Positions 2,974 through 30,331 are shown, counted from the first letter of the stretch. The stretch is DNA of 60,216 bases from Anaerolineae bacterium (GCA_034429055.1 DAOUGK010000025.1:1-60216); one strand, 5' to 3'. Numbers and translations: made by a program. Notes: a model not told the origin generated them from the letters alone.

Positions 2974-3666
2974 ATGGATAGAGACGAGGCCCTGCAGAAC
3001 ACGGCCAGGTTATTGAAGGCCGTATCCTACTTTTCCGACATGGACGCGGCTGCTTTGGATTTGGTGGCGCAATCCGCAACTCGTCGCGTCTATGACGCGG
3101 GGCAAGTGATCCTGCTGGAAGGTGAGCCATGCGAGGGCTTACACGTGGTGGAACGCGGTTGGCTGCGGGTCGTCAAGATCGGGCTGGATGGCCGCGAGCA
3201 GGTGCTGCAAACGCTGGGCCCCGGCGAGGCATTCAACGCGATCAGTGTCTTCACCGATGCTCCGAATCAGGCCACGGTCACTGCGTTGGAGACCTCCCAG
3301 GTCTGGATCGTTCGGCGCGCGGTGCTGTTGAGCATGCTGGATGAACATCCAGAGTTGGCGCGGCAGGTTGTGAAGGACCTGGCTGGACGTGTAATGCACC
3401 TCATGCGCATGGTGGAGGACCTGTCGCTGCATTCGGTGGAAGTGCGCCTGGCGCGGCTGTTATTGCAGGGAGCGGAGGGAGACGCAGTCCAGCGCCGGCG
3501 TTGGGCCACGCAAGCCGAGATGGCGGCGCGCCTCGGCACCGTGCCGGACGTGGTTAACCGTGCGTTGCGTAAACTTGCGCTGGCTGGGCTGATCCACGTC
3601 GAACGCCAGCAAATCCGGATTTTGGATCGCGCCAGGCTGCGTGTGGTTGCCCAGGTGGATGCGTAG
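2974..3666 (+). CDS. Crp/Fnr-family transcriptional regulator (230 aa)
   Basis: The cyclic-nucleotide-binding barrel pattern is VILLEGEPCEGLHVVERGWLRVVKIGLDGREQVLQTLGPGEAFN. The C-terminal HTH is ATQAEMAARLGTVPDVVNRALRKLALAGLI. Confidence 0.9.
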   Translation: MDRDEALQNTARLLKAVSYFSDMDAAALDLVAQSATRRVYDAGQVILLEGEPCEGLHVVERGWLRVVKIGLDGREQVLQTLGPGEAFNAISVFTDAPNQATVTALETSQVWIVRRAVLLSMLDEHPELARQVVKDLAGRVMHLMRMVEDLSLHSVEVRLARLLLQGAEGDAVQRRRWATQAEMAARLGTVPDVVNRALRKLALAGLIHVERQQIRILDRARLRVVAQVDA

Positions 3667-3796
3667 CGCGCGCCAGGTCTGTCCTCGAAGCCGCGGCGAT
3701 GTATGCGGCGCGGCCGGTTTCCCGGAACCGCTCTATGGAGTATAATCCTCTCGGAATGTGATCCATAAATCTTAGCGCCGGTGGCGTCTTGCAGCG

Positions 3797-6700
3797 ATGA
3801 GGCATCTTGTGTCACCGACCTTCTATCGGAGCCGTCCGACCATTGGGGTCCTGGCCGGCTGGCAAATCTACTGGACGGCCAGGCCGTTGAGCTACCTGAA
3901 CCCCATCTTTCGCGGAATCCGCCAGGCCGCGGCTGACTTGGGCTGCAATCTCCTTTTAGGCTGCGGGTTAGGGCCGACCGCAACCTCCAGCGATCCTCTG
4001 CGCCCCGCGTGGCCCTTCCTTTCGCCAGAAACCGACTTTGTTCCGATTGGGCCGTGGAACACGGATGGCCTGATCGCGATCAATCCGCTGCATTCAGAAG
4101 CGCGTTCGCATGACCTGCAACAGGTGAGGGCGGCCGGTCACCCGGTGCAATTTATTGGCTCCGGAGAAGACGGCCCGACGATTGTTGCCGACAATGCCGG
4201 GGGCATCCAGATTGCGCTGGAGCACCTGAGCGAGCATGGCCACCGGCGCATCGCCTTCATCGCCGGCAGCCCGGCAGATATGTCCGGTGACACCGGCGCC
4301 CGGCTGACCGCCTATCGCACCGCGCTCGCTCAGCATACGCCGGCGGCCCAACCTGGGTTGGGGGCCCAACCTGGGTTGGGCTTTGACGAGCGCCTGGTGG
4401 CCTACGGCCGGCACACCTACGATGGCGGCGAAGCAGCCATGCGCCAGATCATCGACTCAGGTGCGGCGTTCACCGCGGTTCTGGCGAGCAACGATGAGTC
4501 GGCCTTCGGTGCACTGCAAGTACTCCGCAGCGCCGGTCTGGACGTTCCGCGTGATGTGGCGGTCATCGGCTTCGATGACCGCCCGGAATGTGCGGTGCAG
4601 GAACCGCCGTTAACCAGCGTCCACATTCCCCTGGTCAACATGGGTTATCGCGCGGTCGAGCTGCTCCTGCAGCAGATTAACGGCCGGCCTGCAGCGGTCG
4701 AACCCGTGAAGATTGCCACCCGTCTTGTGCCGCGTGAATCGTGCGGCTGTGGCTGGACGGCTCTTCGTGCCCAGCGCCTACCTTCTGGGTCGGCGGAATC
4801 TGCGGTCGAGACGAGTCAGTCGGCTGATCGACGCGCGCGCCTGGTGCAGGCAATGGTCGAGACCGTCCTGGCTGAGACCCAGGGCTCTTACGCGACAGCC
4901 ATGCGCCAACGCTGTCACGATCTTGTCCATGCCTTCATCCTGAGTGTCGAACAGCGCGAGGTGTCTGTCTTCCAACAGAATCTGGCTGATCTGCTCCGCG
5001 CCACGGCCGGGGAGGGGATTGACACACATATCTGGCAAGGGGTGCTCTCGCAGCTGGGCTGCGAGATGCCTGCCCTGTTGGCCGACTGGGACCAGCCTGC
5101 GACGCGGGATTTCGCGCGGGAATTGTTGGAGCAGGCGCGCGTGGCAATCAGCGCCGCCACACTGCGCCAGAGGCAGCAGTTTGTCGTGGACCAAAGCTGG
5201 ACGGACGGCCGCATCGGGCTGTTGACGGCGCGCCTCCTCACCGCGCTTGACGAAACCCAAGTCTATCAGATTTTGGCGCAGCACTTGCCCGAAATGGGCA
5301 TCCGAACTGCGGTCGTGGCCCTTTTTGAGGCTGAAGGCGAGGACCCCGTGGCATGGAGCTCCCTGCGCTCCGTCACAGCCGCCGGACAGCCGACGTGCCG
5401 TTTCCCCACCCGAGACTATCCACCTGCCGGCCTCTGCGCGGCCGAGCAGCCCTTCAGTCAGGCATTGTTGCCGCTGGTGAACCCGCACGGCCAGCTGGGA
5501 TACGTGGCGTTCGATACCGGTCATCTGGAGCTCTATGGTGCGATCGCACAACAGATTGCCGGCGCCCTCAACACCGCACAGTTGTATCGTGAGGCCACTG
5601 AGGGCCGGCGCCTGGCCGAAGAAGCGGACCGGATGAAGAGCCGTTTCCTTTCGACCGTGAGCCATGAGTTGCGCACGCCGCTGAACCTGATTGTCGGTCT
5701 GGGCGAGATCCTCCTGCGCGACAGTGAGCGGGGCGCTCTGCCGCTGCCCCCGGCCGCGCTGAACGATCTGGCGCGCCTGAACGCCAACGCTCAGCATCTG
5801 GGCCGGCTGATTGGTGACGTGCTGGACCTTGCCAGCAGCGATGCCGGACAGTTGCGGCTGACCAATCAGCTCGTGGATCTGGGACAGACTCTACAGACGG
5901 CGGTGGAGACCGGTCGGAGGCTTGCGGCGGATAAGGGGCTCGGATGGCGTGCGACCCTTCCCGAATCGGGGCCGTGGGTCTGGGGCGATCGCACCCGGCT
6001 ATCACAGGTGGCGCTGAACTTCATCAGCAACGCTATCAAATTTACGACGTACGGAGAAGTCTCCCTGGCGGTGGAGCTTGGCGCCGGGTCTGTCACCGTC
6101 AGCGTGCGCGACACAGGGCTGGGCATCCCGCTAGAGGAGCAGGCCGCGATCTTCGCGGACTTCCGCCGGTCGGAGCGGAGCATCACCCGCGGCTACAGCG
6201 GCCTGGGCCTGGGGCTGGCGATCTGCCGGCGTCTGATCGAGCTGCACGGCGGCACGATCGGCGTGGAGTCTACCGGGCACGAGGGCGCTGGCTCGACCTT
6301 CTACTTCACCTTGCCGGTCGTCGAACCGCCGGCCGTCCAGGTACCGGTTGCCGCGTCGGCGGCGGGGAGCGAAGGGGGCGTCCTGGTGCTTACCCCGTCG
6401 CCGGACACCAGCGAGCGCCTGCGCGTGCACTTACAGCAGCACGGCTTTGAGGTGCAGATGGCCCTGCCGGATCAGCCCTCGAACTGGCAACCTCTGCTCC
6501 TGGCCGCACCCCCCACCGCGATTGTGCTCGATGTGACCCAGGCATCGGATCAGGCCTGGCATGTGCTGAAGATGCTTAAGGCCGACTCCAGAACACAGGA
6601 GATTCCTGTGCTCTTCTACGCGCTCTCGCAGGACAGCGGCGCAGTCCTGGAACTGGACTATCTCACCAAGCCGATCGAACTGGCCGAGCTGACGCGCGCG

Positions 6701-7456
6701 CTCGATCAGCAGTGGCTGCTGCCGGATGCGGTGTCCTCCCCGACGTCGCAGCGCGTGTTTCTGGTGGTCGACGATGACCCGGACACCCTGGAGATGCACG
6801 CGCGCATCGTGCGCCGACATTCGCCTGCCAATCGTGTGCTGCAAGCGCGCAACGGGTTGGCGGCGCTGGACATCCTGCAGCGCGAACACGTCGATCTGGT
6901 GCTGCTGGATCTGATGATGCCGGAAATGGACGGCTTTGCCGTGCTGGCAGCAATGCGGGAACGCGAGGCCACGCGCACCATCCCGGTCATCGTCGTCACC
7001 GGTCAGACGCTCACCGAGCCGGAGATGAGCCGGTTGAATATCGGTGTAACGCGGGTGTTGAGCAAGGGCGTATTCAACCTCGAAGAAACGCTGGCCCACC
7101 TGGACGGCGCGCTGGCGCGCAAGCGGGTCTTGAGCAGCGAAGCGCAACGCCTGGTGCGCCAGGCGATGGCCTATATTCAGGCGCACTACGCCGAGCCGCT
7201 CTCGCGCCAGGCAATCGCCGCGCACGTCGGCCTGAGCGATGACTATCTCACCAGTTGCTTTCATAAGGAACTCGGCCTGACGCCGGTGGCTTACCTCAAC
7301 CGTTATCGTGTGGAGCAGGCCCGCCAACTGCTGGCAAATACGCACAAGAGCATCACCGAGATTGCGCTGGACGTGGGCTTCTCCAGCAGCAGCTATTTCA
7401 GTCGCATCTTCCGCCGTGAGACGGGTGTGTCGCCGGAGGCATATCGGCGCTCGTAA
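3797..7456 (+). CDS. Hybrid sensor-regulator: LacI-type ligand-binding domain + GAF-like + histidine kinase + degenerate receiver + receiver + AraC-type HTH (1219 aa)
   Basis: - aa ~13-318: LacI/periplasmic-binding-fold pattern (RPTIGVLAG..., RIAFIAGSP, VLASNDESAFGALQVLRSAGLDVPRDVAVIGFDD, TSVHIPL) with no HTH.
- aa ~470-600: GAF-like end (LLPLVNPHGQLGYVAFD...AQQIAGALNTAQLYREA).
- H-box SHELRTPL (His623).
- HATPase_c motifs (NFISNAIKFT; DTGLGI; GLGLGLAICRRLIELHGG).
- Receiver-like aa ~861-968, lacking the acidic pair.
- Canonical receiver aa ~987-1095 (VVDDD, LLDLMMP Asp1038, VTG, SKG).
- AraC HTH aa ~1118-1217 (ITEIALDVGFSSSSYFSRIFRRETGVSP).
- No hydrophobic TM segment was seen. Confidence 0.9.
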   Translation: MRHLVSPTFYRSRPTIGVLAGWQIYWTARPLSYLNPIFRGIRQAAADLGCNLLLGCGLGPTATSSDPLRPAWPFLSPETDFVPIGPWNTDGLIAINPLHSEARSHDLQQVRAAGHPVQFIGSGEDGPTIVADNAGGIQIALEHLSEHGHRRIAFIAGSPADMSGDTGARLTAYRTALAQHTPAAQPGLGAQPGLGFDERLVAYGRHTYDGGEAAMRQIIDSGAAFTAVLASNDESAFGALQVLRSAGLDVPRDVAVIGFDDRPECAVQEPPLTSVHIPLVNMGYRAVELLLQQINGRPAAVEPVKIATRLVPRESCGCGWTALRAQRLPSGSAESAVETSQSADRRARLVQAMVETVLAETQGSYATAMRQRCHDLVHAFILSVEQREVSVFQQNLADLLRATAGEGIDTHIWQGVLSQLGCEMPALLADWDQPATRDFARELLEQARVAISAATLRQRQQFVVDQSWTDGRIGLLTARLLTALDETQVYQILAQHLPEMGIRTAVVALFEAEGEDPVAWSSLRSVTAAGQPTCRFPTRDYPPAGLCAAEQPFSQALLPLVNPHGQLGYVAFDTGHLELYGAIAQQIAGALNTAQLYREATEGRRLAEEADRMKSRFLSTVSHELRTPLNLIVGLGEILLRDSERGALPLPPAALNDLARLNANAQHLGRLIGDVLDLASSDAGQLRLTNQLVDLGQTLQTAVETGRRLAADKGLGWRATLPESGPWVWGDRTRLSQVALNFISNAIKFTTYGEVSLAVELGAGSVTVSVRDTGLGIPLEEQAAIFADFRRSERSITRGYSGLGLGLAICRRLIELHGGTIGVESTGHEGAGSTFYFTLPVVEPPAVQVPVAASAAGSEGGVLVLTPSPDTSERLRVHLQQHGFEVQMALPDQPSNWQPLLLAAPPTAIVLDVTQASDQAWHVLKMLKADSRTQEIPVLFYALSQDSGAVLELDYLTKPIELAELTRALDQQWLLPDAVSSPTSQRVFLVVDDDPDTLEMHARIVRRHSPANRVLQARNGLAALDILQREHVDLVLLDLMMPEMDGFAVLAAMREREATRTIPVIVVTGQTLTEPEMSRLNIGVTRVLSKGVFNLEETLAHLDGALARKRVLSSEAQRLVRQAMAYIQAHYAEPLSRQAIAAHVGLSDDYLTSCFHKELGLTPVAYLNRYRVEQARQLLANTHKSITEIALDVGFSSSSYFSRIFRRETGVSPEAYRRS

Positions 7457-7642
7457 CCCTCGCTTTGCGCGTGCCGGGCACTGTGCACCCGCCTGGCCCG
7501 CGGCCTCTTTTCCCCCCCAATTCTTGCATCTTAGCGGAATCCTGCATGTTCCGTACGCTTTTGGGCAAGCCCCCCTTCAATTAACCCGATAGAATCATGT
7601 TCAGTTGTGGAAGCGATCCCAGCCCAATGTGCGGGGGACAGC

Positions 7643-7867
7643 ATGACACTCACCCTTCAGCAAATCGCTCAATTGGCGGGCGTCTCACGCTCGACCGCTT
7701 CGCGCGTCATCAACGGACATCCCCACGTGCGGCCCGAAGTGCGCGAACGGGTCTGGCAGGTTATCGGCGAACACGGCTACCAGCCCAATCCCATCGCGCG
7801 GCTCCTGGCCGCCAGCCGCACCAGTGAATCGGCCCTGGATCGGCCGGACCAGGATACCAGCGCATGA
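7643..7867 (+). CDS. Stand-alone LacI-family HTH domain protein (74 aa), possibly a truncated LacI
   Basis: [62 protein letters not shown] matches the LacI/GalR N-terminal HTH plus hinge. Homology ends at the hinge and no ligand-binding domain follows. The ATG at 7643 follows ggggga. Confidence 0.7.
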
Positions 7868-7880
7868 GCCGCACCTTCTT

Positions 7881-7941
7881 TTTTCGCCAGCGATCCTTTC
7901 GCCAGCAATCCTTTCGCCAGCGATTCCTTCGCCAGTGACTG
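7881..7941. repeat. Four tandem 15-16-bp direct repeats (TTTCGCCAGCRATCC-like) in the regulator/transporter intergenic region
   Basis: The units are tttcgccagcgatcc (7881-7895), tttcgccagcaatcc (7896-7910), tttcgccagcgattcc (7911-7926) and ttcgccagtgactgg (7927-7941). The array lies 119 nt upstream of the binding-protein start codon. Confidence 0.85.
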
Positions 7942-8059
7942 GAAGCGCTTTCAGGATTTCCGAAGGAGGTGGCGCAGCCCATTGATAATCCCAAATCGTG
8001 ATCAGCTAGATGTTGTTCCAACCAATCCTTTCATAATCCGGTATAAGGAGAAGACTCTC

Positions 8060-9409
8060 ATGTCCAGGAAGATCGTGACCCTCGTCAGCATGTTGATCGT
8101 GCTGGCAACCGTGCTGTCCGCTTGCGGCGGCTCGGCCACCCCGGCGCCGTCCACGGCAGCAGGCGGAGCGGCCCAGGCCCCCGCTGCGGATGCCAAAGTG
8201 ACCCTGAAGGTGCTCGTCCACCAGAATCCGCCCATGGTGGAGTTCATGAACACCTTCAATGAGAAGTTCCAGGCCAAATATCCCAACATCACCGTGGATA
8301 TGTCGGTCGTGAACGCCAACGACCTGAGCACCGTCACCCAGACCCGGCTGACCGCCAATGACGTGGATGTCGTAGATATCTTCGGCTTCGCGAATGCGGC
8401 CCAGCCGTACATGAAGAACGTCACCCAGCCCAATTGGCAGACCCTGATCGAGGCCGGCCTGTTGATGGACCTCACGGATCAGCCGTTCGTCAAGAACTAC
8501 GACGAGGCGACGATCAAGGACGCCGGTACCTACAACGGCAAGGTCTATTCGATCAACCTGGGCCGCGTTTCCTACAGCGGCATCTACTACAACAAGGACA
8601 TGTTCACTGCGAACAATGTTAAAGTCCCCACCACCTGGGGCGAGCTGGTGGCTGCCTGCGAAACCTTCAAAGCAGCCAACATCCCGTGCATGACCGCGGG
8701 CGGCAAGGACGGCTGGCCCATCTTCGTGGGCGCGTACGGCCTGACGGGCGCGCTCTATCCTGACCAGGCCGCCCTGGTCGAGGGGCTGTGGACCGGCAGC
8801 ATCAAGTGGAACGATGCCAAGGCCCTGGACATGTGGCAGCGGATGAAGGTCTACACCCAGGACATGATGGAATCGGGCGCCAGCGGCATCGCGGGTGACG
8901 CGGCGCCTGGGCGCTTTGCCTCCGGTGCGGTCGCCATGTTCCCCGGCGGCACCTGGTACGCCTCGGCCATCGACGCGGCCGAACCGGCCTTCGAGTGGGG
9001 CTACATCCCCTTCCCCGGCAGCGACAACGCCGACGACAACAAGTACCTGTTCGGCAAGTACGACCAGGGCTGGGCCGTAGCCGCCAAGACCGCCAACACG
9101 GACGCGGCCATGAAGTACCTGACCGAGTTCTCGGCCCCGGCCAACTACCAGGCGTTTGCCAATGCGGTCGGCTTCATCCCCACCCAGCCGGGCGCCAAGT
9201 TGGAAACCAAGATCGGCCAGGAAGTTGCACCGTATCTCGCCAACTTCCGCGTGGGCTTCGAGCAGTACTGGATCGCGCCGAAGGGCGCCGGCCAGTACGC
9301 CAACCCCTGGGCTTCGTACTTCAAGCCGTTCGGCGAATACGACGACCCGCAAGAACTGGCGAACAAGGTGCAGGCTGACCTGCAATCCGGGCTGGACGCG
9401 AACCAGTAG
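8060..9409 (+). CDS. ABC transporter extracellular solute-binding lipoprotein (CUT1/family-1 sugar-binding type, 449 aa)
   Basis: The ATG at 8060 is preceded by aaggag. The lipoprotein signal is MSRKIVTLVSMLIVLATVLSACGG. Size and composition are typical of sugar SBPs, and two permease genes follow. The upstream ORF extension from 7982 was rejected. Confidence 0.9.
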   Translation: MSRKIVTLVSMLIVLATVLSACGGSATPAPSTAAGGAAQAPAADAKVTLKVLVHQNPPMVEFMNTFNEKFQAKYPNITVDMSVVNANDLSTVTQTRLTANDVDVVDIFGFANAAQPYMKNVTQPNWQTLIEAGLLMDLTDQPFVKNYDEATIKDAGTYNGKVYSINLGRVSYSGIYYNKDMFTANNVKVPTTWGELVAACETFKAANIPCMTAGGKDGWPIFVGAYGLTGALYPDQAALVEGLWTGSIKWNDAKALDMWQRMKVYTQDMMESGASGIAGDAAPGRFASGAVAMFPGGTWYASAIDAAEPAFEWGYIPFPGSDNADDNKYLFGKYDQGWAVAAKTANTDAAMKYLTEFSAPANYQAFANAVGFIPTQPGAKLETKIGQEVAPYLANFRVGFEQYWIAPKGAGQYANPWASYFKPFGEYDDPQELANKVQADLQSGLDANQ

Positions 9410-9493
9410 GCCGTCAGCCGGACCGGCCTTCCCGCTGTGGGCTTCTCGTCCGATCTTCGAGAAGCCCACAGCCATATCGCATGGAGGCACGCC

Positions 9494-10420
9494 ATGAACT
9501 ATCACTTCGGTCACGGCAGGTCCAGGTGGCTGCCCTATCTGTTGCTCCTGCCAGGGATCTTCTTCTACCTGTTGATCAGCCTGGGCCCGTCGCTCGCAAC
9601 CGCCGTCTATTCGTTCACCGATGCCACCGGCATCAAGGGTGCGCCCATCAACTGGGTGGGGTTGGCGAACTATCGCGAATTCCTCTTCATGGGCCAGGCC
9701 TCGCTCGACAACTACAGCGCGCTCTGGCGTACGCTGATCTTCTGCTTCTTCGTGACGACCATCCAGTTCACCCTGGGGCTGGTCATTGCCCTGCTCGTGA
9801 ATCAGAAGCTGCGGGGCGTCAACTTCTTCCGCACCGTCTACTTCATGCCTGTCATCCTGGGCGCGGTAATCCAGGGCCTGATCTGGTCCCTCTTTCTCTA
9901 CCCCCTGGGCGGCCCGATGGCCCAGTTGTTGGGCCTGTTCGGGCTGAAGTCTGAGTTTCTCGGCGGGCAGGCCAGCCAGGCGTTCGCCTGGGTGATCGTC
10001 GTGCAGATCTGGGCCAACATGGGCACGACGATGATGATCTTCATCTCCGGCCTCCAGACCATTCCGGACGAACTTTACGAGGCGGCGCGCATCGATGGCG
10101 CCGGCTCGTGGCACGTCTTCCGCAACGTGGTGTGGCCCCTCCTGACGCCGGTCGTGAACACCAACCTGCTCCTGAACATCATCGGCTCGCTTCAGGCCTG
10201 GCAACTGTTCCTGGTGCTCCTCGGTTACCGCAACGGGACACAGGTTCTCGGCTATCTGATCTTCGCCCAAGGCTTCGGTCAGACCTCCGGCAGCGTCACC
10301 AGTGCGTTCCGGCAAGGCTATGCTGCAGCCGCCTCGATCGTGCTGTTCATCCTCGTGCTGGTGATCGGCATGATCGTCCAGACCGTGCTGCGGCGCAGAG
10401 AAGAAAGGGTCATGGGATGA
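9494..10420 (+). CDS. ABC sugar transporter permease (MalF/UgpA-like, 308 aa)
   Basis: Multiple TM segments are present. The EAA-type loop is IPDELYEAARIDGAGSWHVFRNVVWPLL. The ATG at 9494 follows ggagg. Confidence 0.92.
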   Translation: MNYHFGHGRSRWLPYLLLLPGIFFYLLISLGPSLATAVYSFTDATGIKGAPINWVGLANYREFLFMGQASLDNYSALWRTLIFCFFVTTIQFTLGLVIALLVNQKLRGVNFFRTVYFMPVILGAVIQGLIWSLFLYPLGGPMAQLLGLFGLKSEFLGGQASQAFAWVIVVQIWANMGTTMMIFISGLQTIPDELYEAARIDGAGSWHVFRNVVWPLLTPVVNTNLLLNIIGSLQAWQLFLVLLGYRNGTQVLGYLIFAQGFGQTSGSVTSAFRQGYAAAASIVLFILVLVIGMIVQTVLRRREERVMG

Positions 10421-11280
10421 GCACAACTGTTGCGACTGCACCAACTGCCCGGAAGGTGACCGATACCAGGACGATCAATTGGGGACGCATCCTCTCCTAT
10501 GTGCTCCTGGTGCTCTTCGCGATCATCTATCTGGGCCCGCTGCTCATGCTGGTCAGCACGTCTCTGAAGACGTTGCCCGACTTCATGAAGAACGCGACCT
10601 CCCTGCCCACGTCGCTGAACTTCAAGAATTTCACCGAGGCGTGGACGAGGGCCAATTTCCCCCGGTACCTGACCAACACCGTGCTCTACACGGTCTCCGC
10701 GACGGTCATCTACCTTGTCACGGCGGTGTTTGTCGCGTTCCCCATCTCGCGCGGCTACGTCAAGGGCGCCAAGGTCCTGCTGACCCTGTTCGTGATCGCC
10801 CTGTTCCTGCCCGTGGCGTTGATTCCCCAGTTCCAGCTGATGTTGTCGTTGGGGCTGTACAACAACCCGTTCGGCTACGTCCTGTTGTTCCTGGTGAACC
10901 CCATCGGGATCATCATCCTGGTCAACTACATCAAGACCCTTCCGAAAGAGATGGATGAGGCGGCCGCGATCGACGGCTGCGGCTACTTCCGTTTCGTGCT
11001 TACCGTGGTCTTCCCGCTGATCCAGCCGGCCATCGCCACGGTGGCCGTGCTGCACGCCATCGGCATCTGGAACGAGCTGATCCTGCCGACCATCTACCTG
11101 ACCAACCAGAACTACTATCCCATCACGCGCGGCATGATCGTGTTCCAGGGCGTCTACGGCAGCAACTGGCCGACGCTGGCAGCCGCGGTCCTGATCATGA
11201 CGCTGCCGATGGTCATCATCTTCCTGGTGCTGCAGCGCTACATCGTGTCCGGCCTGACCCAAGGCGCGGTCAAAGGCTAG
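10417..11280 (+). CDS. ABC sugar transporter permease (MalG/UgpE-like, 287 aa)
   Basis: The start overlaps the upstream stop (ATGA at 10417-10420). The EAA loop is LPKEMDEAAAIDGCGYFRFVLTVVFPLI. Six hydrophobic segments are present. Confidence 0.92.
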   Translation: MSTTVATAPTARKVTDTRTINWGRILSYVLLVLFAIIYLGPLLMLVSTSLKTLPDFMKNATSLPTSLNFKNFTEAWTRANFPRYLTNTVLYTVSATVIYLVTAVFVAFPISRGYVKGAKVLLTLFVIALFLPVALIPQFQLMLSLGLYNNPFGYVLLFLVNPIGIIILVNYIKTLPKEMDEAAAIDGCGYFRFVLTVVFPLIQPAIATVAVLHAIGIWNELILPTIYLTNQNYYPITRGMIVFQGVYGSNWPTLAAAVLIMTLPMVIIFLVLQRYIVSGLTQGAVKG

Positions 11281-11581: not shown

Positions 11582-12391
11582 ATGAAGAAGACACGTGCCG
11601 TAACCCTTCTCCTGACGCTGATACTGCTGCTGACAGCCTGCGCGCCCGCTGCCACGCCCGTCCCTGTGCCGGAGGGTTGGCAGTTGGTCTGGCACGACGA
11701 ATTCGACGGCAAGGCGGTTGACAAGGCCAACTGGACCTACGACCTCGGCGGCTCGGGGTGGGGCAATGGGGAGGCCCAATTCTACACCGACCGGCCGGAA
11801 AACGCGCACGTCGAGGATGGTCTGCTCATCATCGAGGCCAGGCAGGAAAAGTACGAGGGCTCCTACTACACCTCAGCGCGGCTGAAGACGCAAGGGCTGC
11901 AGGAATTCCAGTACGGCCGGATCGAGGCGCGCATCAAGGTGCCCGCCGGCGCAGGGCTGTGGCCCGCGTTCTGGATGTTAGGCGCAGGCTTCGACGGCAC
12001 GAACTGGCCCGATTGCGGCGAAATTGATATCATGGAGTACGTTGGCCGTGAGCCGGACCTGGTCATGGGCACTGCCCACGGGCCGGGCTATTCGGGCGCG
12101 CTCGGATTGAGCCGGTGGAACCGGCAGACCTACAACCTCGCCGACGATTTCCACACCTTCGCCATCGAATGGCAGGCCGGCCAGATCAAATGGTTCTATG
12201 ACGGCGCCGAGTATTTCACACTGACCAGCGCCGATGTAGGCGACCGCCAGTGGGTCTTTGACCAGCCGTTCTTCATCATCCTGAACCTGGCGATAGGAGG
12301 CACGCTGGGCGGCACGATCGGCCTCGACACGGCTTTCCCCACGCAGTTGCAGGTGGACTACGTACGGGTCTTTCAGGTGGCGGACTCGTAA
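11582..12391 (+). CDS. GH16 beta-1,3(-1,4)-glucanase / laminarinase-type lipoprotein (269 aa)
   Basis: The lipobox is LLLTACAP. GH16 laminarinase-type motifs are present: GLWPAFWMLG, the catalytic GEIDIMEY, and FHTFAIEW. Confidence 0.9.
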   Translation: MKKTRAVTLLLTLILLLTACAPAATPVPVPEGWQLVWHDEFDGKAVDKANWTYDLGGSGWGNGEAQFYTDRPENAHVEDGLLIIEARQEKYEGSYYTSARLKTQGLQEFQYGRIEARIKVPAGAGLWPAFWMLGAGFDGTNWPDCGEIDIMEYVGREPDLVMGTAHGPGYSGALGLSRWNRQTYNLADDFHTFAIEWQAGQIKWFYDGAEYFTLTSADVGDRQWVFDQPFFIILNLAIGGTLGGTIGLDTAFPTQLQVDYVRVFQVADS

Positions 12392-12450
12392 CGCCAAGCT
12401 CTGCGGGTTCCATGAACCCGCAGAGCCCATATCGTCAGAGGAGTTCAGTC

Positions 12451-15400
12451 ATGAAGCTAACGACCACTTTTGTTAATTTGGCCGCGATTCTGAGTCTGCT
12501 GCTCGGCGGCGCGCTCGTGCTCCCCGGCCCGCAGGCTCAGGCGCGGGTGGCGGCCGCGAGCGCCGCGCTGCCCCTCGTGGACGACTTCGAGGCCGGGCTG
12601 CCGGCCGGGCAGGATGGTTCGGTGCCGATCGGGTTCAACACCTTCGCGGACCCCAACAGCACGGCTGCAATCTCGACCACCAATGCGGATCCGGCGCCGT
12701 CAGTGCCGGGGCGGGGCGCGGGGAACCATGTTCTGAAGCTGGACCTCAATGTCGTGGCATGGGCCGGCGTCACCCATGCCTTCGAGAATGCCGGGGCCAC
12801 GGCCTGGGTGACCCAGGATTGGAGCGCGTACGCAGGCATCTCCTTCTATCTCTACGGCACGGGGACGGGCACTGACCTGTTCATGGATGTGCTCGACAAC
12901 CGTAACCCCGGCTCGACCAGGGACGACGCCGAGCGCTGGACCCTGGCCTTCAAGGACGATTTCACCGGCTGGAAGCTGATCGAGCTCCCGTTCGCCAGCA
13001 TGACCCGCAAGGAGATCGGCAACGGCGCGCCGAACGACGGCTTCGGGCTGACCGAGGTGCACGGCTGGGGCTTCGGCACGCTGGGCACGGGCGGCGCAAA
13101 GGCCTACTACCTGGACGATGTATCGGTCTACGGTGTTGCACCAGTCAAGCCGCTGACGGTCGGCTTTAATACGCTCAACTATCCGGTCACCGAGGGCGAT
13201 GCTGCAACGATCACGGCCAAGCTCAGCAAGCCTTCCGCCGATGTGGTGACGGTGGATTATGCGACGACCTCCGGCCCCGCAGTTGCGAATCGCGACTATG
13301 TGCCGACCTCCGGTACGTTGACCTTCCCGCCGGGCGTCACCCAGCAGTCGTTCGCGGTGCAGACGATTGACGACGCCAAGTTCCAGGGCGAACGCGGCGT
13401 GCTGGTCGAGCTGTCCAACCCGACCGGCGGCCTCGCGATGGGCATGCCGCCGTTGGCGCGGGTGAACATCCTGGACAATGAGGCGTACTACCCGCCGCTG
13501 CTGGACGACTTCGAGACCTATCCGTACCTCTGGTCCGCGACCCCGCGCGCGGCCCTGTCCAACCCGGAGATTGCCGCGGGCGACATGCTGGCGCTGCCGG
13601 GCCAGGGCGCGTACGAGCACGTGCTCCAGGTCGGTCCACAGCGCCTCAGCTATCTGCCGCTCATGGCGCACAAGGGTCTCGCAGCACCCCCGCCTGTCCA
13701 GCAGCCCGCCGCGCCGCCCACCCAACGCTTTGGCCGCACCTTCCCTGTCGGCCAGGACTGGAGCGCCGCGTCGGGGTTGAGCTTCTGGTACTACGGCCGC
13801 AACAGCGGCAAAGCGGTCCAGGTTGCGCTGACCAACGACCTGGCGGCTCCGACCAATCCCGCGAACTGGCAGCTTGTCTGGCGCGATGAGTTCAATACGG
13901 CTGCCGGCGCCCCGCCCAACCCGCGCGTCTGGGGCAACGAGGTCGGCGACGGCACCGTCAACGGCATCCCCGGCTGGGGCAACGATGAGCTGGAGTATTA
14001 CACCCCAGGCGGCACGAACGCATCCACCGACGGCCAGGGCCACCTGGTAATCACCACCGCGGCAGCTGACGGCTCGCTGCAGTGCTACTATGGACCCTGC
14101 AAGTACACCTCGGCGCGGCTGCTGACCAAGAACCGGTTCGAGGTCGCCTACGGCCGGGTCGAGGCGCGCGTCAAAGTGCCCGTCGGCGCCGGGCTCTGGC
14201 CGGCGTTCTGGATGCTCGGCACGGACATCGACCGGGTCGGCTGGCCGCTGACCGGCGAAATCGACATCATGGAGCACGTCGGGCGCCTGCCCAACGAGAT
14301 CTTCGGCACCCTGCACGGCCCCGGCTATTCGGGCGGCAACAGCTACGGCAAGGTCGTCGATCTGGGCAAACCGGTCGCCGATGAATTCCATACCTTCGCG
14401 GTGGAATGGCAGCCGAATAAGATCACCTGGTTCCTGGACGGCGTCGCTTACTTCACGGCGACCCCGGCCGATCCGTTCCTTGCGGGCAAGCAGTGGGTCT
14501 ACAACCACCCGTTCTACATGCTGCTGAACGTGGCGGTCGGCGGCAACTTCGGCGGGGCAGTCAGCCCCGACACGGTCTTCCCGCAGCAGACCCTGGTGGA
14601 CTACGTGCGCCTCTACCAGGCTGCGCCGCAGCCCGTGTCGTTTGCGACGTCGTTCGTCGACAACTTCAGCGGCTGGCAGCAGATCAGCCTCCCCTTCACC
14701 GCCTTCAAGGACGCGGTGGGAACCACGCTGGACCCGTCGGCCGTGCGGTCGATCAGCTTCGGCGTACCGGCTCCCCTGCGCACTCCGGTGCTGCTCGACC
14801 AGGTGCGCCTGACGTACGACGATGCCACGCCGCCAACGGTGGACATCACCAGCAGCGCGGCCGGCCAGACGGCGGCGGGCCCGGTCACGTTCACCTTCAC
14901 GTTCAGCGAAGACATCGGCACGAGCTTCACCGCCGATGACATCGCGGTCACGGGCGGCGCAGCGGGCACCTTCACGCGCGTCAGCGGCACGCTGGCGACG
15001 TTGGTTGTGACGCCGCCTGCGAATGCGACCGGCACGATCACCGTCAGCGTGGCGGCGGGCAAGTTCTACGACCTTGCCTACAATGCCAACACGGCCGCGG
15101 CCTCTCTCGATCAAGTTTACGACACGAAGAGTGTTGTGCTGAACGGGCTGCCGGTGACGTTTGACGACCCGGCGGTGACGTACACGCTGACGGGCTTCGG
15201 CGGGGCTGAGGCGGCGAGCGTGGTGACCGACCCAGCGGGCGGCACGAACAAGGTGGCGCAGGTCACCAAGTCGGCGACGGCGGAGCTGTGGGCGGGCGTG
15301 ACCGTCTCGACCGAGCCGGGCAACTCGCTCGCACCGATTCCGTTCACCGCGACGGCCAAGACCATCACGGTGCGGGTGTGGTCGCCCACGGCGGGTGTGC

Positions 15401-16680
15401 CGATCCGGCTGAAGGTGGAAGACGCGTCGGACGGCAGCAAGAGCTGCGAGACGGAGGCGACAACGACGGTGGCGAACGCCTGGGAGACGCTGACCTTCGA
15501 CTTCGCCAACCCGGCTGCGGGCACCGCACCGCTGAACCTGGCGACGACCTACAACCGCATGTCGGTGTTCCCGAACTTCGGCAAGACCGGTGCGCAGATC
15601 GGCGGCGCGTCGACCTACTACTTCGACGACTTCGCAATGGGCGGCGGTGTCGTGCTGAACGGGCTGCCGGTGACGTTCGATGACCCGGCGGTGACGTACA
15701 CGCTGACGGGCTTCGGCGGGGCCGAGGCGGCGAGCGTGGTGGCCGACCCGGCGGGCGGCACGAACAAGGTGGCGCAGGTCACCAAGTCGGCGACGGCGGA
15801 GCTGTGGGCGGGCGTGACCGTTTCGACCGAGCCGGGCAACTCGCTTGCACCGATTCCGTTCACCGCGACGGCCAAGACGATCACGGTGCGGGTGTGGTCG
15901 CCCACCGCGGGTGTGCCGATCCGGCTGAAGGTGGAGGACGCGGCGGACGGCAGCAAGAGCTGCGAGACGGAGGCGACGACCACGGTGGCAAACGCCTGGG
16001 AGACGCTGACCTTCGACTTCGCCAACCCGGCCGCGGGCACCGCGCCGCTCAACCTGGCGACGACCTACAACCGGATGTCGGTGTTCCCGAACTTCGGCAA
16101 GACCGGCGCACAGATCGGCGGCGCGTCGACCTACTACTTCGACGACTTTGCGATGGGCGGCGGTGTTGTGCTGAACGGGCTGCCGGTGACGTTCGACGAC
16201 CCGGCGGTGACGTACACGCTGACGGGCTTCGGCGGGGCCGAGGCGGCGAGCGTGGTGACCGACCCGGCGGGCGGCACGAACAAGGTGGCCCAGGTGGCCA
16301 AGTCGGCCACGGCGGAGCTGTGGGCGGGCGTGACGGTCTCGACGGAGCCGGGCAACTCGCTCGCACCGATTCCGTTCACCGCGACGGCCAAGACGATCAC
16401 GGTGCGGGTGTGGTCGCCCACGGCAGGCGTGCCGATCCGGCTGAAGGTGGAGGACGCGGCGGACGGCAGCAAGAGCTGCGAGACGGAGGCGACGACCACG
16501 GTGGCAAACGCCTGGGAGACGCTGACCTTCGACTTCGCCAACCCGGCTGCGGGCACCGCGCCGCTGAACCTGGCGACGACCTACAACCGCATGTCGGTGT
16601 TCCCGAACTTCGGCAAGACCGGCGCACAGATCGGCGGCGCATCGACCTACTACTTCGACGACTTCGCCTTCGTGCCCTGA
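12451..16680 (+). CDS. Secreted multidomain GH16 glucanase (1409 aa): CBM11-like modules, Calx-beta, GH16 catalytic domain, Ig-like domain, three C-terminal CBM-like modules
   Basis: - The ATG at 12451 follows gaggag; the signal peptide is MKLTTTFVNLAAILSLLLGGALVLPGPQAQA.
- DDFE-type beta-sandwich modules are present.
- Calx-beta pattern: VTVDYATTSGPAVANRDYVPTSGTLTFPPGVTQQSFAVQTIDD.
- GH16 core: GLWPAFWMLG, GEIDIMEH, FHTFAVEW.
- Ig-like segment: PPTVDITSSAAGQTAAGPVTFTFTFSEDI.
- Three modules of 172 aa each follow. Confidence 0.9.
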   Translation: MKLTTTFVNLAAILSLLLGGALVLPGPQAQARVAAASAALPLVDDFEAGLPAGQDGSVPIGFNTFADPNSTAAISTTNADPAPSVPGRGAGNHVLKLDLNVVAWAGVTHAFENAGATAWVTQDWSAYAGISFYLYGTGTGTDLFMDVLDNRNPGSTRDDAERWTLAFKDDFTGWKLIELPFASMTRKEIGNGAPNDGFGLTEVHGWGFGTLGTGGAKAYYLDDVSVYGVAPVKPLTVGFNTLNYPVTEGDAATITAKLSKPSADVVTVDYATTSGPAVANRDYVPTSGTLTFPPGVTQQSFAVQTIDDAKFQGERGVLVELSNPTGGLAMGMPPLARVNILDNEAYYPPLLDDFETYPYLWSATPRAALSNPEIAAGDMLALPGQGAYEHVLQVGPQRLSYLPLMAHKGLAAPPPVQQPAAPPTQRFGRTFPVGQDWSAASGLSFWYYGRNSGKAVQVALTNDLAAPTNPANWQLVWRDEFNTAAGAPPNPRVWGNEVGDGTVNGIPGWGNDELEYYTPGGTNASTDGQGHLVITTAAADGSLQCYYGPCKYTSARLLTKNRFEVAYGRVEARVKVPVGAGLWPAFWMLGTDIDRVGWPLTGEIDIMEHVGRLPNEIFGTLHGPGYSGGNSYGKVVDLGKPVADEFHTFAVEWQPNKITWFLDGVAYFTATPADPFLAGKQWVYNHPFYMLLNVAVGGNFGGAVSPDTVFPQQTLVDYVRLYQAAPQPVSFATSFVDNFSGWQQISLPFTAFKDAVGTTLDPSAVRSISFGVPAPLRTPVLLDQVRLTYDDATPPTVDITSSAAGQTAAGPVTFTFTFSEDIGTSFTADDIAVTGGAAGTFTRVSGTLATLVVTPPANATGTITVSVAAGKFYDLAYNANTAAASLDQVYDTKSVVLNGLPVTFDDPAVTYTLTGFGGAEAASVVTDPAGGTNKVAQVTKSATAELWAGVTVSTEPGNSLAPIPFTATAKTITVRVWSPTAGVPIRLKVEDASDGSKSCETEATTTVANAWETLTFDFANPAAGTAPLNLATTYNRMSVFPNFGKTGAQIGGASTYYFDDFAMGGGVVLNGLPVTFDDPAVTYTLTGFGGAEAASVVADPAGGTNKVAQVTKSATAELWAGVTVSTEPGNSLAPIPFTATAKTITVRVWSPTAGVPIRLKVEDAADGSKSCETEATTTVANAWETLTFDFANPAAGTAPLNLATTYNRMSVFPNFGKTGAQIGGASTYYFDDFAMGGGVVLNGLPVTFDDPAVTYTLTGFGGAEAASVVTDPAGGTNKVAQVAKSATAELWAGVTVSTEPGNSLAPIPFTATAKTITVRVWSPTAGVPIRLKVEDAADGSKSCETEATTTVANAWETLTFDFANPAAGTAPLNLATTYNRMSVFPNFGKTGAQIGGASTYYFDDFAFVP
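15133..16677. repeat. Three tandem 516-bp near-identical coding repeats (172-aa modules)
   Basis: The units start at 15133, 15649 and 16165 (VVLNGLPVTFDDPAVTYTLTGFGG...). They differ by 1-3 aa per 172, plus scattered synonymous changes. Confidence 0.95.
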
Positions 16681-16875: not shown

Positions 16876-16911
16876 TTTGCACCGCCTGCATCAGCTCGCA
16901 GGCGGTGCAAA
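16876..16911 (+). other. 14-bp perfect stem-loop / palindrome 17 nt upstream of the phosphorylase-like gene start (function unknown)
   Basis: tttgcaccgcctgc (16876-16889) pairs with gcaggcggtgcaaa (16898-16911) around an 8-nt loop. No U-tract follows. Confidence 0.6.
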
Positions 16912-16928
16912 TTGAAAGCGAACACACC

Positions 16929-19900
16929 ATGACCCAACATCATTTCGACCCTCAGAACCGTTTCGTCATCGAGGATTTCGACGCTTTTCCCTCGTTTGCC
17001 AGCTTCCTGCCGGGGATCGCGGGGCCGTTGGGCATTCCCCTCTGGGCGTTCTACGTCAACCGCGGCCAGGCCATTGCCGGCTTCGGCGTGGAAAGCAAGG
17101 ACAACCCCATTATGGAGTTCCAGCCGGCGAACAAGGCGTATCAGATGACGCCGTACATGGGATTCCGCACCTTCATCAAGCTGCGCGACCAGGCCGGTGA
17201 TAGGTATTACGAGCCGTTTTCCGCGGTAGCGCCGACCTCACCCTCAGCCCCTCTCCTGCAAGGAGAGGGGTCGGAGGTGAGGCCTCGCCGCATGTTCATC
17301 GCGCCGAACGAGCTGGAACTGGAAGAAGCGAGCCCGGTGCATGGTCTCCAGACCAACGTCGTGTACTTCATCCTGCCCGGCGAAGGCTTCGCCGCGCTGG
17401 TGCGCCAGGTGACGGTCAAAAACATCGCCGCACAACCGGTCGCGATCGAACTACTGGACGGCCTGCCGGCGATCATTCCATTCGGTGTGACGAACGGGAT
17501 GCTCAAGGAGATCGGCCGCACCGCTGAGGCGTGGATGGCGGTCACCAACCTGGCCCAGGGCATCCCGTTCTATCGGGTGCAGGCCAGCATTGCGGATCGC
17601 GCCGAGGTGGAAACATTCGAGGCGGGGCATTTCTACCTCGCCTTCACGGGTGGGGGTCAACACGGCGGTTCACCCCTGCTGTTCGTCGATCCTACGGTGA
17701 TCTTCGGTCCCAACACCGCCCTCAGCTATCCCGATCGCTTCCTCGCCGGCTCGCTGGCCGAGTTGGCTGCCGCGCCGCAGGTCCCGCTGTGCCGGACGCC
17801 CTGCGGGTTTGCCGGTGCCGCGGCCACGCTGGCGCCGGGTGAAGCGCTGACGCTCTATGCCATCATCGGCCACGTGGGCGAGGTGGAGGTCATCAACCGG
17901 GCGCGGGCGCGCCTGGCCGATCCCGTATTTGTCGCCGCCAAGCGCGCCGAGGCGCAGGCGCTGGCCGCGCAGTTGACCGCTTCCATTTCAACGCAAACCG
18001 GCGACTCGCGTTTCGACGCGTACTGCCGGCAGGCGATGCTCGACAACATCCTGCGCGGCGGCTGGCCCGTGTCCCTGGACGGCCACATTTACCACCTCTA
18101 CGGCCGCCGGCACGGCGACCTGGAGCGCGACTACAACGCGTTCCTCCTGCCGGCCGAGTTCTACTCACAGGGCAACGCGAGCTATCGGGATGTCAACCAG
18201 AATCGGCGCTCCGATGTGCTCTTCAACCCTGCGGTCGGTGATCAGGAGTTCCTGGCTTTCCTCAGTTTGATCCAACCCGACGGCTATAACCCGCTCACCG
18301 TGCTGGGCAGCCGGTTCACGATCCCGTCTGAGCGGCAAGCGGCGGTGCTTGCGCTGGTGGACCGGCCTGATCTGCTGCGTCCGCTGCTGAGCAACCCCTT
18401 CACGGCCGGCTCTCTGCTCAAGACGGTTGCGCAACACGGCATCCGCCTGACCGTGCCGCCGGCGGCCCTCGTCGAAGCGGCCGCGGCCCAGGCCGACTGG
18501 GAGTTCGCGGCGACGTTTACCGAGGGCTACTGGGTTGACCATTGGTTCTACAATCTTGATCTGCTGGACGCGTACCTGGCAATCTACCCGGACCGCCAAG
18601 ACGAGTTGTTGTTCGAGAAGACCGTGCCTTATTATCAAGGTGCGGCGTTCGTGCAGCCGCGCGAGCGGAAGACTGTGCTGCTGGCGAACGGCCAGGTGCG
18701 CCAGTATGGGGCACTTCTGGAAGACGAGGAATTGGCGCATCGGCTTGCCGGTGGACCCCACCCGCGCCACCTCGCGCGGGCGGGCCAGGGGGAGGGCGAG
18801 GTCTTCACGAGCACCGTCTTCGCCAAGCTGACCGGCCTCGCGCTGCTCAAGTTCGCCACCCTCGACCCGTCTGGCATGGGCGTCGAGATGGAGGCGGGCA
18901 AGCCGGGCTGGTGTGACGCGCTCAACGGCCTGCCGGGGTTGTTCGGCTCATCGCTGTCAGAGACCTATGAACTGCTGCGTCTGCTCGACTTCCTGCTGGG
19001 GAACCTCACCCCCCTGCCCTCCTCTCCCTCGCAGGGAGGGGGACGGGAGGAGGGTGTCGCTCTGCCCATCGAGCTGGCTGGGCTGCTGCGCGAGGTCGTG
19101 ACGCAGCTTACTGCCTACCAGCGCGCGTTTGACGCCGAGCGTGATCACCGCTATTGGGATGCCGTGGCGACTGCGCGCGAGGCTTATCGGCAGCGCGTCC
19201 GCCTGGGCTTCGACGGCCGCACGGAGACGATTGACTCTGCGAATCTCGGCTCGATCCTGCAGGCCTTCCGTGACAAGGTTGCCGCGGGTATCGCGCGGGC
19301 CGAGGCGCTGGCCGGCGGCATCCCGCCCACCTACTTCGTCCACGAAGCGCGCGATTACGAGGTCATGACCGGGGCGGCCGGCGAGCCGCTGCGTGACGGC
19401 CAGGGCCGGCCTTTCGTGCGCGTGACCCATTTTGAACTGCAAACCCTGCCCCCGTTCCTGGAGGGGCCGGTGCACGCCATGATGGCTTATCAGGCTGACC
19501 TCGCACGCACTCGCCTCATCTACGAACAGGTGAAGGCCGGACCGCTCTTCGACGCCGCGCTGGGCATGTACAAGACCAACGCGCCGCTGGCGGATTGCTC
19601 CCCCGAGATCGGCCGGCTGCGCGCCTTCACGCCGGGTTGGCTGGAGAACGAATCCGTATTCCTGCACATGGCCTACAAGTACCTGTTGGCGACCTTGCGG
19701 GCGGGGCTGCGCGACGAGTTCTTCACCGACATCCGCCGCGGCCTCGTACCGTTCTTCGATCCGCAGACTTATGGCCGCAGCCCGCTGGAGAACTCTTCGT
19801 TCATCGTCAGCAGCGCCCATCCCGATGCCGCGCTGCACGGCCGCGGGTATGTCGCCCGCCTCACCGGCGCCACTGCCGAGTTCCTCAGCATGTGGTCGCT

Positions 19901-29885: not shown

Positions 29886-30331
29886 GAACACTCCAGAAGA
29901 TAGGGTTGTGGTATGGATTGCGAATGGTGCGTGGGGTTAACAACTGAACAGCGGCCTGGAAGGCAGCCGCAGTACAGGCTCAGAAGGGAGCGGGAACGTA
30001 CGCCGGGTTTCATCCGGTGTCCTCTGGTTCGGCTCTGGGTGAGCCGCGGGCTATCTGGCCCGCGGCAGACAGGTGCAAGGGAGAGAAAAGACGGGTGCCG
30101 CGCGTCGTACGACGCGCGGCACCCGTCTTTTCTCTCCCTTGCACCTGTCTGCCGCGGGCCAGATAGCCCGCGGCTCACCCAGAGCCGAACCAGAGGACAC
30201 CGGATGAAACCCGGCGTACGTTCCCGCTCCCTTCTGAGCCTGTACTGCGGCTGCCTTCCAGGCCGCTGTTCAGTTGTTAACCCCACGCACCATTCGCAAT
30301 CCATACCACAACCCTATCTTCTGGAGTGTTC

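Follow-up and report, generated by a model that had tools for sequence, protein, structure and literature searches.

A putative soluble one-chain two-component regulator with a LacI-type sugar-binding core beside a predicted β-1,3-glucan locus of Chloroflexota

Which sugar signal reaches a regulator that carries histidine kinase, receiver and AraC domain on a single chain, if its sensor resembles a cytoplasmic repressor? Hybrid two-component systems (HTCSs) of this general kind are the textbook glycan sensors of Bacteroides, where they read periplasmic sugars, and Chloroflexota are abundant glycan degraders in wastewater and sediments. The question is raised by a protein of 1219 amino acids (aa) encoded at positions 3797–7456 of a 60,216-nucleotide (nt) stretch of DNA from an Anaerolineae bacterium (GCA_034429055.1, DAOUGK010000025.1:1-60216), in the following referred to as the window. 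The gene is located directly upstream of genes predicted to import and degrade β-1,3-glucan. A first-pass annotation, made from the DNA alone, had read it as the likely regulator of these genes.

We consider it reasonably probable (roughly 0.65) that this soluble, one-chain two-component regulator switches on the glucan locus when breakdown products enter the cell. In that case Chloroflexota would have built the one-chain logic of kinase, receiver and AraC domain on a cytoplasmic LacI-type pocket, and the sugar would be sensed after import rather than before.

The LacI-type sensor core

The gene and the domains of its product are listed by position, strand and residue range, together with the evidence for each assignment.

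3797–7456 (+): hybrid regulator gene, ATG start, 1219 aa (homologue alignment, Pfam domains)
3833–4750 (+): ligand-binding core of LacI/GalR type without helix-turn-helix (HTH), residues 13–318 (Pfam, PDB, Foldseek)
4811–5239 (+): all-helical bundle, residues 339–481 (AlphaFold models)
5252–5629 (+): GAF-fold domain, residues 486–611 (AlphaFold model, Foldseek)
5633–6319 (+): histidine kinase core, HisKA 613–684 with His623 and HATPase_c 730–841 (Pfam, NCBIfam)
6374–6721 (+): degenerate (pseudo-)receiver, residues ~860–975 (phmmer, hhalign, alignment)
6761–7084 (+): canonical receiver, residues 989–1096 (Pfam Response_reg, invariant active site)
7214–7450 (+): AraC/XylS-type DNA-binding domain HTH_18, residues 1140–1218 (Pfam, PDB)

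The N-terminal domain is assigned by sequence and fold comparison to the lineage of the cytoplasmic LacI repressors and not to that of the periplasmic binding proteins. Pfam models match residues 142–316 (Peripla_BP_3, E = 1.9e-36) and residues 104–310 (Peripla_BP_1, E = 2.6e-12). All 60 matches listed for residues 1–340 against the PDB sequences are LacI-family regulators or LacI-like structural-genomics entries, with the CelR-cellobiose complex (PDB entry 5ysz) at the top (5.4e-30). The best 50 fold matches found by Foldseek are LacI-family regulators as well, 5ysz being retrieved at 5e-17. The core terminates in an invariant R-E-S-C-G-C motif. A Pfam scan detected no LacI HTH (PF00356) on the regulator's own chain. 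Since stop codons lie just 5' of the ATG in the regulator's reading frame and only 14 residues precede the first β-strand of the core, which begins at residue 15, no HTH is hidden at the N-terminus. The earlier description of a LacI-type ligand domain that lacks its HTH was thus borne out.

A Kyte-Doolittle hydropathy analysis gave a peak 19-residue mean of only 1.52, located within the receiver, and revealed neither a hydrophobic N-terminal stretch nor a signal-like N-terminus. The regulator is predicted to be soluble and without a membrane segment, in agreement with the first-pass annotation, which had seen no transmembrane helix and had placed a sensor of the LacI-repressor type inside the cell. 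In Bacteroides BT1754, too, the sensor has a periplasmic-binding-protein fold, and the N-terminal domain of the present regulator might by analogy be extracytoplasmic and sense outside the membrane. We regard this as very improbable, because no hydrophobic segment was found anywhere in the chain, no signal-like N-terminus was seen, the first core strand begins already at residue 15, and the domain groups with cytoplasmic repressors throughout.

To locate the sugar-binding pocket we aligned the regulator by BLASTP with E. coli LacI, whose numbering was checked against the known positions of R197, N246 and D274. These three residues, which contact the inducer in LacI structures, align to R169, N232 and D260 of the regulator. 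All three are invariant among 19 aligned homologues and nearly so among 98 diverse representatives of the family, which share at most 50% identity. At the position of D149 in LacI the regulator has G121, so that this residue is not conserved. The family also has a conserved insertion of its own without a LacI counterpart (W72 ... F81-P83-G85-W87-N88-T89-G91), and C50, C56 and C316-G-C318 (encoded at 3944–3964 and 4742–4750) are conserved across the 98 representatives, whereas LacI repressors lack them.

The loss of D149, the W72-G91 insertion and the cysteines foreign to LacI would suit a core that responds to a metabolite formed downstream (glucose, glucose-1-phosphate) or to a partner protein, and that reports the metabolic state instead of the availability of the substrate. 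The close structural relatives include CcpA, which binds HPr-Ser-P, and PurR, two regulators that do not bind the substrate sugar of their own pathway. This explanation is nevertheless doubtful in our view: a disaccharide-bound repressor is the best match in both sequence and fold, the three residues that bind sugar hydroxyls are invariant, and the tight linkage to one import and degradation locus, described below, is typical of substrate-specific sensors. A sugar taken up from outside remains the preferred ligand.

Two features of the core are of minor interest. The conserved cysteines C50, C56, C316 and C318 could form a redox or metal site; a single Cys4 metal site built from all four is unlikely, since C50 and C56 are positioned at opposite ends of one β-strand in the model. 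At 4334–4369 an 18-nt tandem duplication (GCCCAACCTGGGTTGGGG/C) encodes AQPGLG twice (residues 180–191). The repeat falls in a 12-residue insertion that is unique to the window's copy and belongs to a loop modelled with low confidence in the sugar domain.

From the core to the DNA-binding domain

AlphaFold models built on 25 homologues reached a mean predicted local distance difference test score (pLDDT) of 81.7 and a predicted template modelling score (pTM) of 0.82 for residues 1–612, and a pLDDT of 89.6 for residues 335–612. In these models the helical bundle (residues 339–481) is followed by an α/β domain (residues 486–573) and by a last helix (residues 574–611) that is continuous with the HisKA helix. 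Residues 321–612 have no Pfam match, and none of the Pfam models GAF, GAF_2 and GAF_3 matches the regulator at E ≤ 0.1; a sequence search of the PDB with residues 321–618 returned nothing useful. In a Foldseek search of the PDB with residues 335–612, however, the top 30 matches are almost all GAF domains, with E-values from 6.9e-5 to 4e-2 and low template modelling scores. They include PDE6C (6.9e-5), PDE5A, phytochrome GAF domains, NlhH, Lcd1 and KdpD. As these scores are modest, the term GAF-like holds at the level of the fold only. The "helical and GAF-like region" of the first-pass annotation can be kept in this restricted sense: bundle and GAF fold appear in the model, but no Pfam GAF family recognizes the sequence.

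The middle region of the sensor occurs in many other proteins. When residues 321–612 alone were searched against 1.84 billion representatives, 570 clusters (at 50% identity) passed a threshold of E ≤ 1e-3 and 200 the stricter one of E ≤ 1e-10; the match nearly always starts at residue 300–350 of the matched protein. Pfam scans of ten of these proteins revealed several different outputs. LacI core and middle region are fused to the full set of kinase, receiver and AraC domain in some relatives, to an AraC domain alone in P0125 (714 aa, Chloroflexota, five contigs), to receiver plus AraC in P0132, to GGDEF in P0141 and P0162, to PAS and GAF repeats plus a kinase in P0158, and to PAS and GAF repeats with no kinase domain detected in P0268. 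A kinase-only architecture (P0124, 883 aa) was set aside as a probable frameshift fragment; its 90% cluster also contains a 1194-aa member, and its contig a 313-aa fragment. By this comparison LacI core, helical bundle and GAF fold are a portable cytoplasmic input module. That the module travels as one unit suggests that bundle and GAF-fold domain act as a transducer for the core.

The GAF-fold domain is directly wired to the kinase helix, and LacI-type cores are obligate dimers. Both points would also agree with a different division of labor, in which the signal really enters through the GAF-fold domain and the sugar core mainly provides a scaffold for dimerization, or in which two signals are integrated. 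We judge this unlikely. The GAF-fold domain has diverged too far for any Pfam GAF model, core, bundle and GAF fold move together into other architectures, and the sugar-binding residues of the supposed scaffold are conserved.

The catalytic and output domains are well defined. Pfam assigns HisKA to residues 613–684 (E = 4.8e-15), HATPase_c to residues 730–841 (E = 3.2e-26), Response_reg to residues 989–1096 (E = 1.9e-22) and HTH_18 to residues 1140–1218 (E = 6.8e-27). The boxes of the kinase (H623, N741/N745, D772-x-G774-x-G776 and G802-G806) are invariant among the 19 homologues, as are D992, D993, D1038, T1068 and K1090 of the second receiver. The first receiver is recognized by its matches to the receiver of RpaA (3.6e-6) and to PleD in a phmmer search of the PDB, and by an hhalign comparison with the regulator's own second receiver (P = 3.8e-6) which places D912 opposite D1038. 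Its acidic pair is replaced (VLVLT...) and the threonine position is not conserved, while D912 and K958-P959 are retained without exception in the 19-homologue alignment. No histidine phosphotransfer (HPt) family was detected in the regulator by the Pfam scan at E ≤ 0.1. For the AraC domain the top PDB match is 12aw, annotated as "hybrid two-component system protein" (4.8e-17), and E. coli XylR (4fe4) matches at 1.6e-10. The complete kinase with His623, the degenerate receiver, the canonical receiver with Asp1038 and the C-terminal AraC/XylS HTH are all as the first-pass annotation had described them.

We searched 5.8 billion proteins with the full-length regulator and obtained 1532 matches at E ≤ 1e-10. 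Of the best 120, which are 57–92% identical to the query and nearly all full length (1137–1229 aa), only P0051 (988 aa) deviates from the common domain set; the architecture is thus shared by more than 100 cluster representatives. Named sources are Anaerolineae and Chloroflexi only, and all named members belong to the Chloroflexota. When one genome per species was scanned, relatives turned up solely in metagenome-assembled genomes (MAGs) of Anaerolineae and Chloroflexia and in Candidatus Amarolinea aalborgensis (Chloroflexota, Caldilineae), whose regulator is 72% identical. The proteins bear generic names in their source databases ("substrate-binding domain-containing protein" or "ATP-binding protein"). 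The family is catalogued by automatic annotation and appears otherwise uncharacterised. The nearest papers found were a review that lists Periplas_BP among the unstudied sensory domains of cyclic di-GMP enzymes (PMC8846402) and a survey of solute-binding proteins in which Peripla_BP_3 is left out of account, being regarded as a sensor domain of receptors (PMC10443332).

A reading frame of this length in an assembled contig could be an artefact, either a frameshift fusion of several genes or a product of misassembly. The window is indeed identical to its own reverse complement, with 0 mismatches and the center at 30108/30109. This is most likely a hairpin misassembly in which every feature is doubled. 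Since the palindrome is perfect, the unique sequence amounts to only 30,108 bases and the mirror features are artefacts; the "mirror copy" reported at 52761–56420 is no second gene. Moreover, frameshift-split copies of the regulator occur in the related contigs L008, L015, L016 and L023. The probability that the gene itself is an artefact is nonetheless negligible. The center of the palindrome is 22 kb away from it, and assemblies from NCBI, JGI, ENA and Logan supply more than 100 independent cluster representatives, each a single chain of 1137–1229 aa. Full-length homologues of the same architecture exclude a frameshift fusion, a possibility already raised with the first-pass annotation, and confirm the single 1219-aa polypeptide.

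The glucan locus and its candidate control elements

Downstream of the regulator the following genes were identified.

8060–9409 (+): lipoprotein solute-binding protein, SBP_bac_8 (Pfam, lipoprotein signal)
9437–10420 (+): ATP-binding cassette (ABC) permease 1, BPD_transp_1 (Pfam)
~10420–11280 (+): ABC permease 2, BPD_transp_1 (Pfam)
11582–12391 (+): GH16 lipoprotein, 269 aa (Pfam, signal peptide)
12412–16680 (+): secreted GH16 protein, 1422 aa, with CBM11, Calx-beta and Ig-like domains (Pfam, signal peptide)
16905–20222 (+): GH161 β-1,3-glucan phosphorylase homologue, 1105 aa (PDB 9h8v, 9qqk, about 1e-250)
20229–22994 (+): GH94 laminaribiose phosphorylase homologue, 921 aa (PDB 6ggy, E = 0, 1202 bits)

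A signal peptide was found in neither of the two phosphorylase homologues. Judged from these assignments the locus is a coherent β-1,3-glucan pathway of extracellular cleavage, ABC import and intracellular phosphorolysis.

The position of the regulator directly upstream of this importer/GH16/phosphorylase locus, pointed out in the first-pass annotation, is confirmed and kept in independent contigs. In 14 contigs, at 61–92% identity of the regulator, it is found directly upstream of GH16 genes, mostly with the importer in between; Candidatus Amarolinea aalborgensis is represented among them. The order regulator, binding protein, permeases and GH16 is present, as far as the contigs reach, in ten contigs at 72–92% regulator identity and again in L020 at 61%, while in L021 and L022 (about 61%) the regulator directly adjoins the large GH16 gene. 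Because its family sits beside genes for glucan import and breakdown, the protein is probably the regulator of the adjoining locus.

Two Chloroflexia paralogues (40–48% identity) have a different setting. A gene for a sugar-type solute-binding protein ends just before the regulator in L015 (8672–9985) and L016 (7955–9985), and an SBP_bac_5 ABC system follows downstream of it, unlike the GH16 locus.

Between the regulator and the transporter genes we found a further small gene and a group of conserved DNA elements.

7535–7562 (+): conserved 28-nt box CGGAATCCTGCATGTTCCGTACGCTTTT, candidate AraC site (conservation)
7590–7595 (+): -10-like hexamer TAGAAT downstream of the 28-nt box (conservation)
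7608–7621 (+): LacI-operator-like site O1, TGGAAGCGATCCCA, close to the 3' side of the -10-like hexamer (pattern, conservation)
7643–7867 (+): mini-gene, 74 aa, LacI HTH headpiece and hinge without ligand core (PF00356, 2e-18)
7882–7935 (+): about 3.6 tandem 15-nt units of TTTCGCCAGCGATCC, with three overlapping 24-nt copies, just upstream of O2
7940–7953 (+): LacI-operator-like palindrome O2, TGGAAGCGCTTTCA, in the gap between mini-gene and transporter genes (pattern)

The mini-gene begins 187 nt downstream of the regulator, and its 74-aa product matches the LacI HTH model PF00356 only. In each of the 11 related loci with such a mini-gene, it comes immediately after the regulator. Its median ratio of nonsynonymous to synonymous substitution rates (dN/dS) is 0.10, which indicates purifying selection at the sequence level. 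The family of such mini-proteins comprises 234 clusters, and the 120 listed measure 65–99 aa; at least 14 of them stand on contigs equal in length to contigs with a regulator homologue. In L023 a full-length LacI repressor occupies the position of the mini-gene, and its HTH and the mini-protein are 65% identical. The simplest reading of the mini-gene is therefore that of a LacI gene which has lost its core but has been retained by selection.

The 28-nt box is the 5' part of a conserved stretch of ~37 nt that runs to about position 7571. Ten of the 11 aligned loci have kept the box, which is unique in the window, 0.00 matches being expected by chance. We consider the stretch 7535–7571 the best candidate for the site of the AraC domain. 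The first-pass annotation had proposed the region 7868–8059 for this role; the mini-gene and the operators fall inside and beside that region. The tandem 15-nt repeats were rejected as an AraC site. Their number varies between strains, and since orthologous loci carry only one or two copies of the unit, a tandem array is not required.

O1 and O2 are the sole matches to the LacI operator pattern in the unique half of the window, where 0.29 would be expected by chance. O1 is kept in all 11 aligned loci. A palindrome related to O2 is present at the equivalent position in 9 of the 10 other loci inspected; O2 is missing from L005, where it is deleted together with its surroundings, and none was seen in L009. 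The region 3600–8100 contains three terminator-like sites, all of them inside the regulator gene and in a number that equals the chance expectation.

A headpiece without core next to a core without HTH also permits another view, in which the regulator and the 74-aa protein form a split LacI repressor and core, bundle and GAF fold constitute a portable cytoplasmic sugar-sensing module of the Chloroflexota that can be joined to kinases, diguanylate cyclases and AraC domains. The headpiece could then dock on the HTH-less core of the regulator or be controlled by it, and a single sugar-binding event could bring about both phospho-dependent activation through the AraC domain and derepression at O1 and O2. 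We hold this to be rather unlikely, and treat the headpiece in the following as a separate element of the preferred scheme, in which the regulator acts through its own AraC domain.

A strongly conserved box, GAAGGAGGTGGCGCA, resembles a ribosome-binding site and is located at 7962–7976, in the leader about 85 nt before the ATG at 8060. The binding-protein gene starting there is preceded by its own AAGGAGAAG. The GAAGGAGGTGGCGCA box is kept in 10 of 11 related loci, including L005, which lacks O2, and was not seen in L009. It may belong to a leader peptide or an RNA element.

Proposed mechanism and comparison with known systems

We propose that the system works as follows. Secreted GH16 enzymes would cut β-1,3-glucan outside the cell, and the ABC importer would take in the resulting laminari-oligosaccharides, which the GH161 and GH94 phosphorylases would degrade. 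Of the imported sugars, laminaribiose or a short laminari-oligosaccharide would most likely be the one that binds in the cleft of the LacI-type core of the presumably dimeric regulator. Closure of the cleft would be transmitted via the helical bundle and the GAF-fold domain to the kinase; as helix 574–611 is continuous with the helix of His623, the movement could alter autokinase or phosphatase activity. The phosphoryl group would then pass directly from His623 to Asp1038, since the chain contains no HPt domain and its first receiver is degenerate. The latter lacks the metal-binding acidic pair and is probably a structural or regulatory spacer. Phosphorylation of the second receiver would free or dimerize the AraC domain, which would bind the box at 7535–7571 and activate a promoter for the mini-gene and the genes of the transporter and the enzymes. 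The 74-aa headpiece probably binds O1 and O2, where it would serve as a brake or feedback element that needs no ligand. In this scheme we infer the ligand, the sign of regulation, the route of phosphotransfer and the pairings of proteins with DNA sites.

Several observations weigh against this reading. The GAF-fold domain could carry a second signal, and D912 of the first receiver is invariant, so that a role of this residue in phosphotransfer is possible. A consensus scan found no promoter of the sigma-70 type in 3600–8100; the promoter assignment therefore depends on conservation. The mini-gene is absent from the 61%-identity orthologues L020–L022, and it would accordingly be accessory and not essential to the mechanism. 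Paralogues of the regulator at 40–60% identity adjoin other ABC uptake genes, which implies that the ligand differs across the family. Finally, a literature search, in which subscription journals were thinly covered, found no paper describing this regulator family.

If the proposed reading is correct, the regulator would be a membrane-free switch from sugar to phosphorylation, and far easier to study and to engineer than the membrane-bound HTCSs. It would also help to predict which substrates the glycan loci of uncultured Chloroflexota serve.

In its domain order the regulator resembles Bacteroides HTCSs such as BT1754 and BT4124. These have the same one-chain succession of HisKA, HATPase_c, receiver and AraC domain, contain no HPt domain and are likewise encoded beside the glycan-utilisation genes that they presumably control. 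The likeness noted in the first-pass annotation stands in this respect, but does not extend to the sensor or to the receiver signature. The HTCS sensor is periplasmic and is located between transmembrane helices, whereas the present one is of the cytoplasmic LacI type, with helical bundle and GAF-fold transducer in place of the membrane helices. The degenerate receiver is an addition relative to the HTCSs, and the host phylum differs. At least 84% of 6908 Bacteroides HTCSs carry an S/C-H-I-P motif in the α3-β4 loop of the receiver (PMC11253607); here the corresponding residues are T-R-T-I-P (family consensus T-R-D-I-P), followed by β4 with PVIVVTG. In the Bacteroides proteins phosphorylation relieves an inhibitory contact between receiver and AraC domain (PMC11253607), and since the S/C-H-I-P contact motif is missing here, the release of the AraC domain may differ in detail. 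The regulator is thus predicted to work like a Bacteroides HTCS but is not a member of that family, and its architecture was probably assembled independently.

The LacI/GalR repressors (LacI, CelR, CcpA, PurR) have in common with the regulator the type I periplasmic-binding-protein core, the motifs of its C-terminal subdomain and the three sugar-contact residues. They carry their own HTH and bind their operator directly; here the chain has none, a LacI HTH is encoded separately, and the output consists of a phosphorelay and an AraC domain. E. coli XylR is likewise a cytoplasmic sugar sensor of the periplasmic-binding-protein type coupled to an AraC output, and its entries 4fe4 and 4fe7 match the C-terminal part of the regulator at 1.6e-10. 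XylR lacks the helical bundle and the GAF-fold domain (4FE7 structure). In the relative P0125 the sensor module sits directly on the AraC domain, as in XylR, whereas kinase, pseudo-receiver and receiver are inserted between sensor and output in the regulator described here. Because relatives with such a direct fusion exist, the regulator would, if our reading holds, be a naturally occurring case in which a one-component regulator has received a phosphorelay between its input and its output.

Compared with classical hybrid kinases (BarA, TorS, RcsC, ArcB), the receiver in the hybrid-kinase position is degenerate, an HPt domain is missing, the final receiver and a DNA-binding domain are part of the same chain, and the protein is predicted to be soluble. 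The NCBIfam models of BarA, TorS and RcsC align to the kinase and receiver region with E-values from 1e-56 to 1e-65, all scores being far below the equivalog cut-offs.

The surroundings of the locus showed a few additional features. A gene for a Crp/Fnr-family regulator (2974–3666, + strand) is located directly upstream of the hybrid regulator gene, an rve-type transposase gene (44–1321, - strand) at the end of the contig, and a gene for a PfkB-family sugar kinase (22996–23982) on the opposite strand after the phosphorylases, with which it would make up a phosphorolytic β-1,3-glucan pathway. The 2879-bp contig L017 from MAG AnMBR.bin525 encodes orf1924, Crp and residues 1–93 of the regulator, all 100% identical to the window's proteins. 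L001, from the same bin, contains a 92%-identical regulator in the same gene order; AnMBR.bin525 may be a mixture of two strains or contain a recent duplication.

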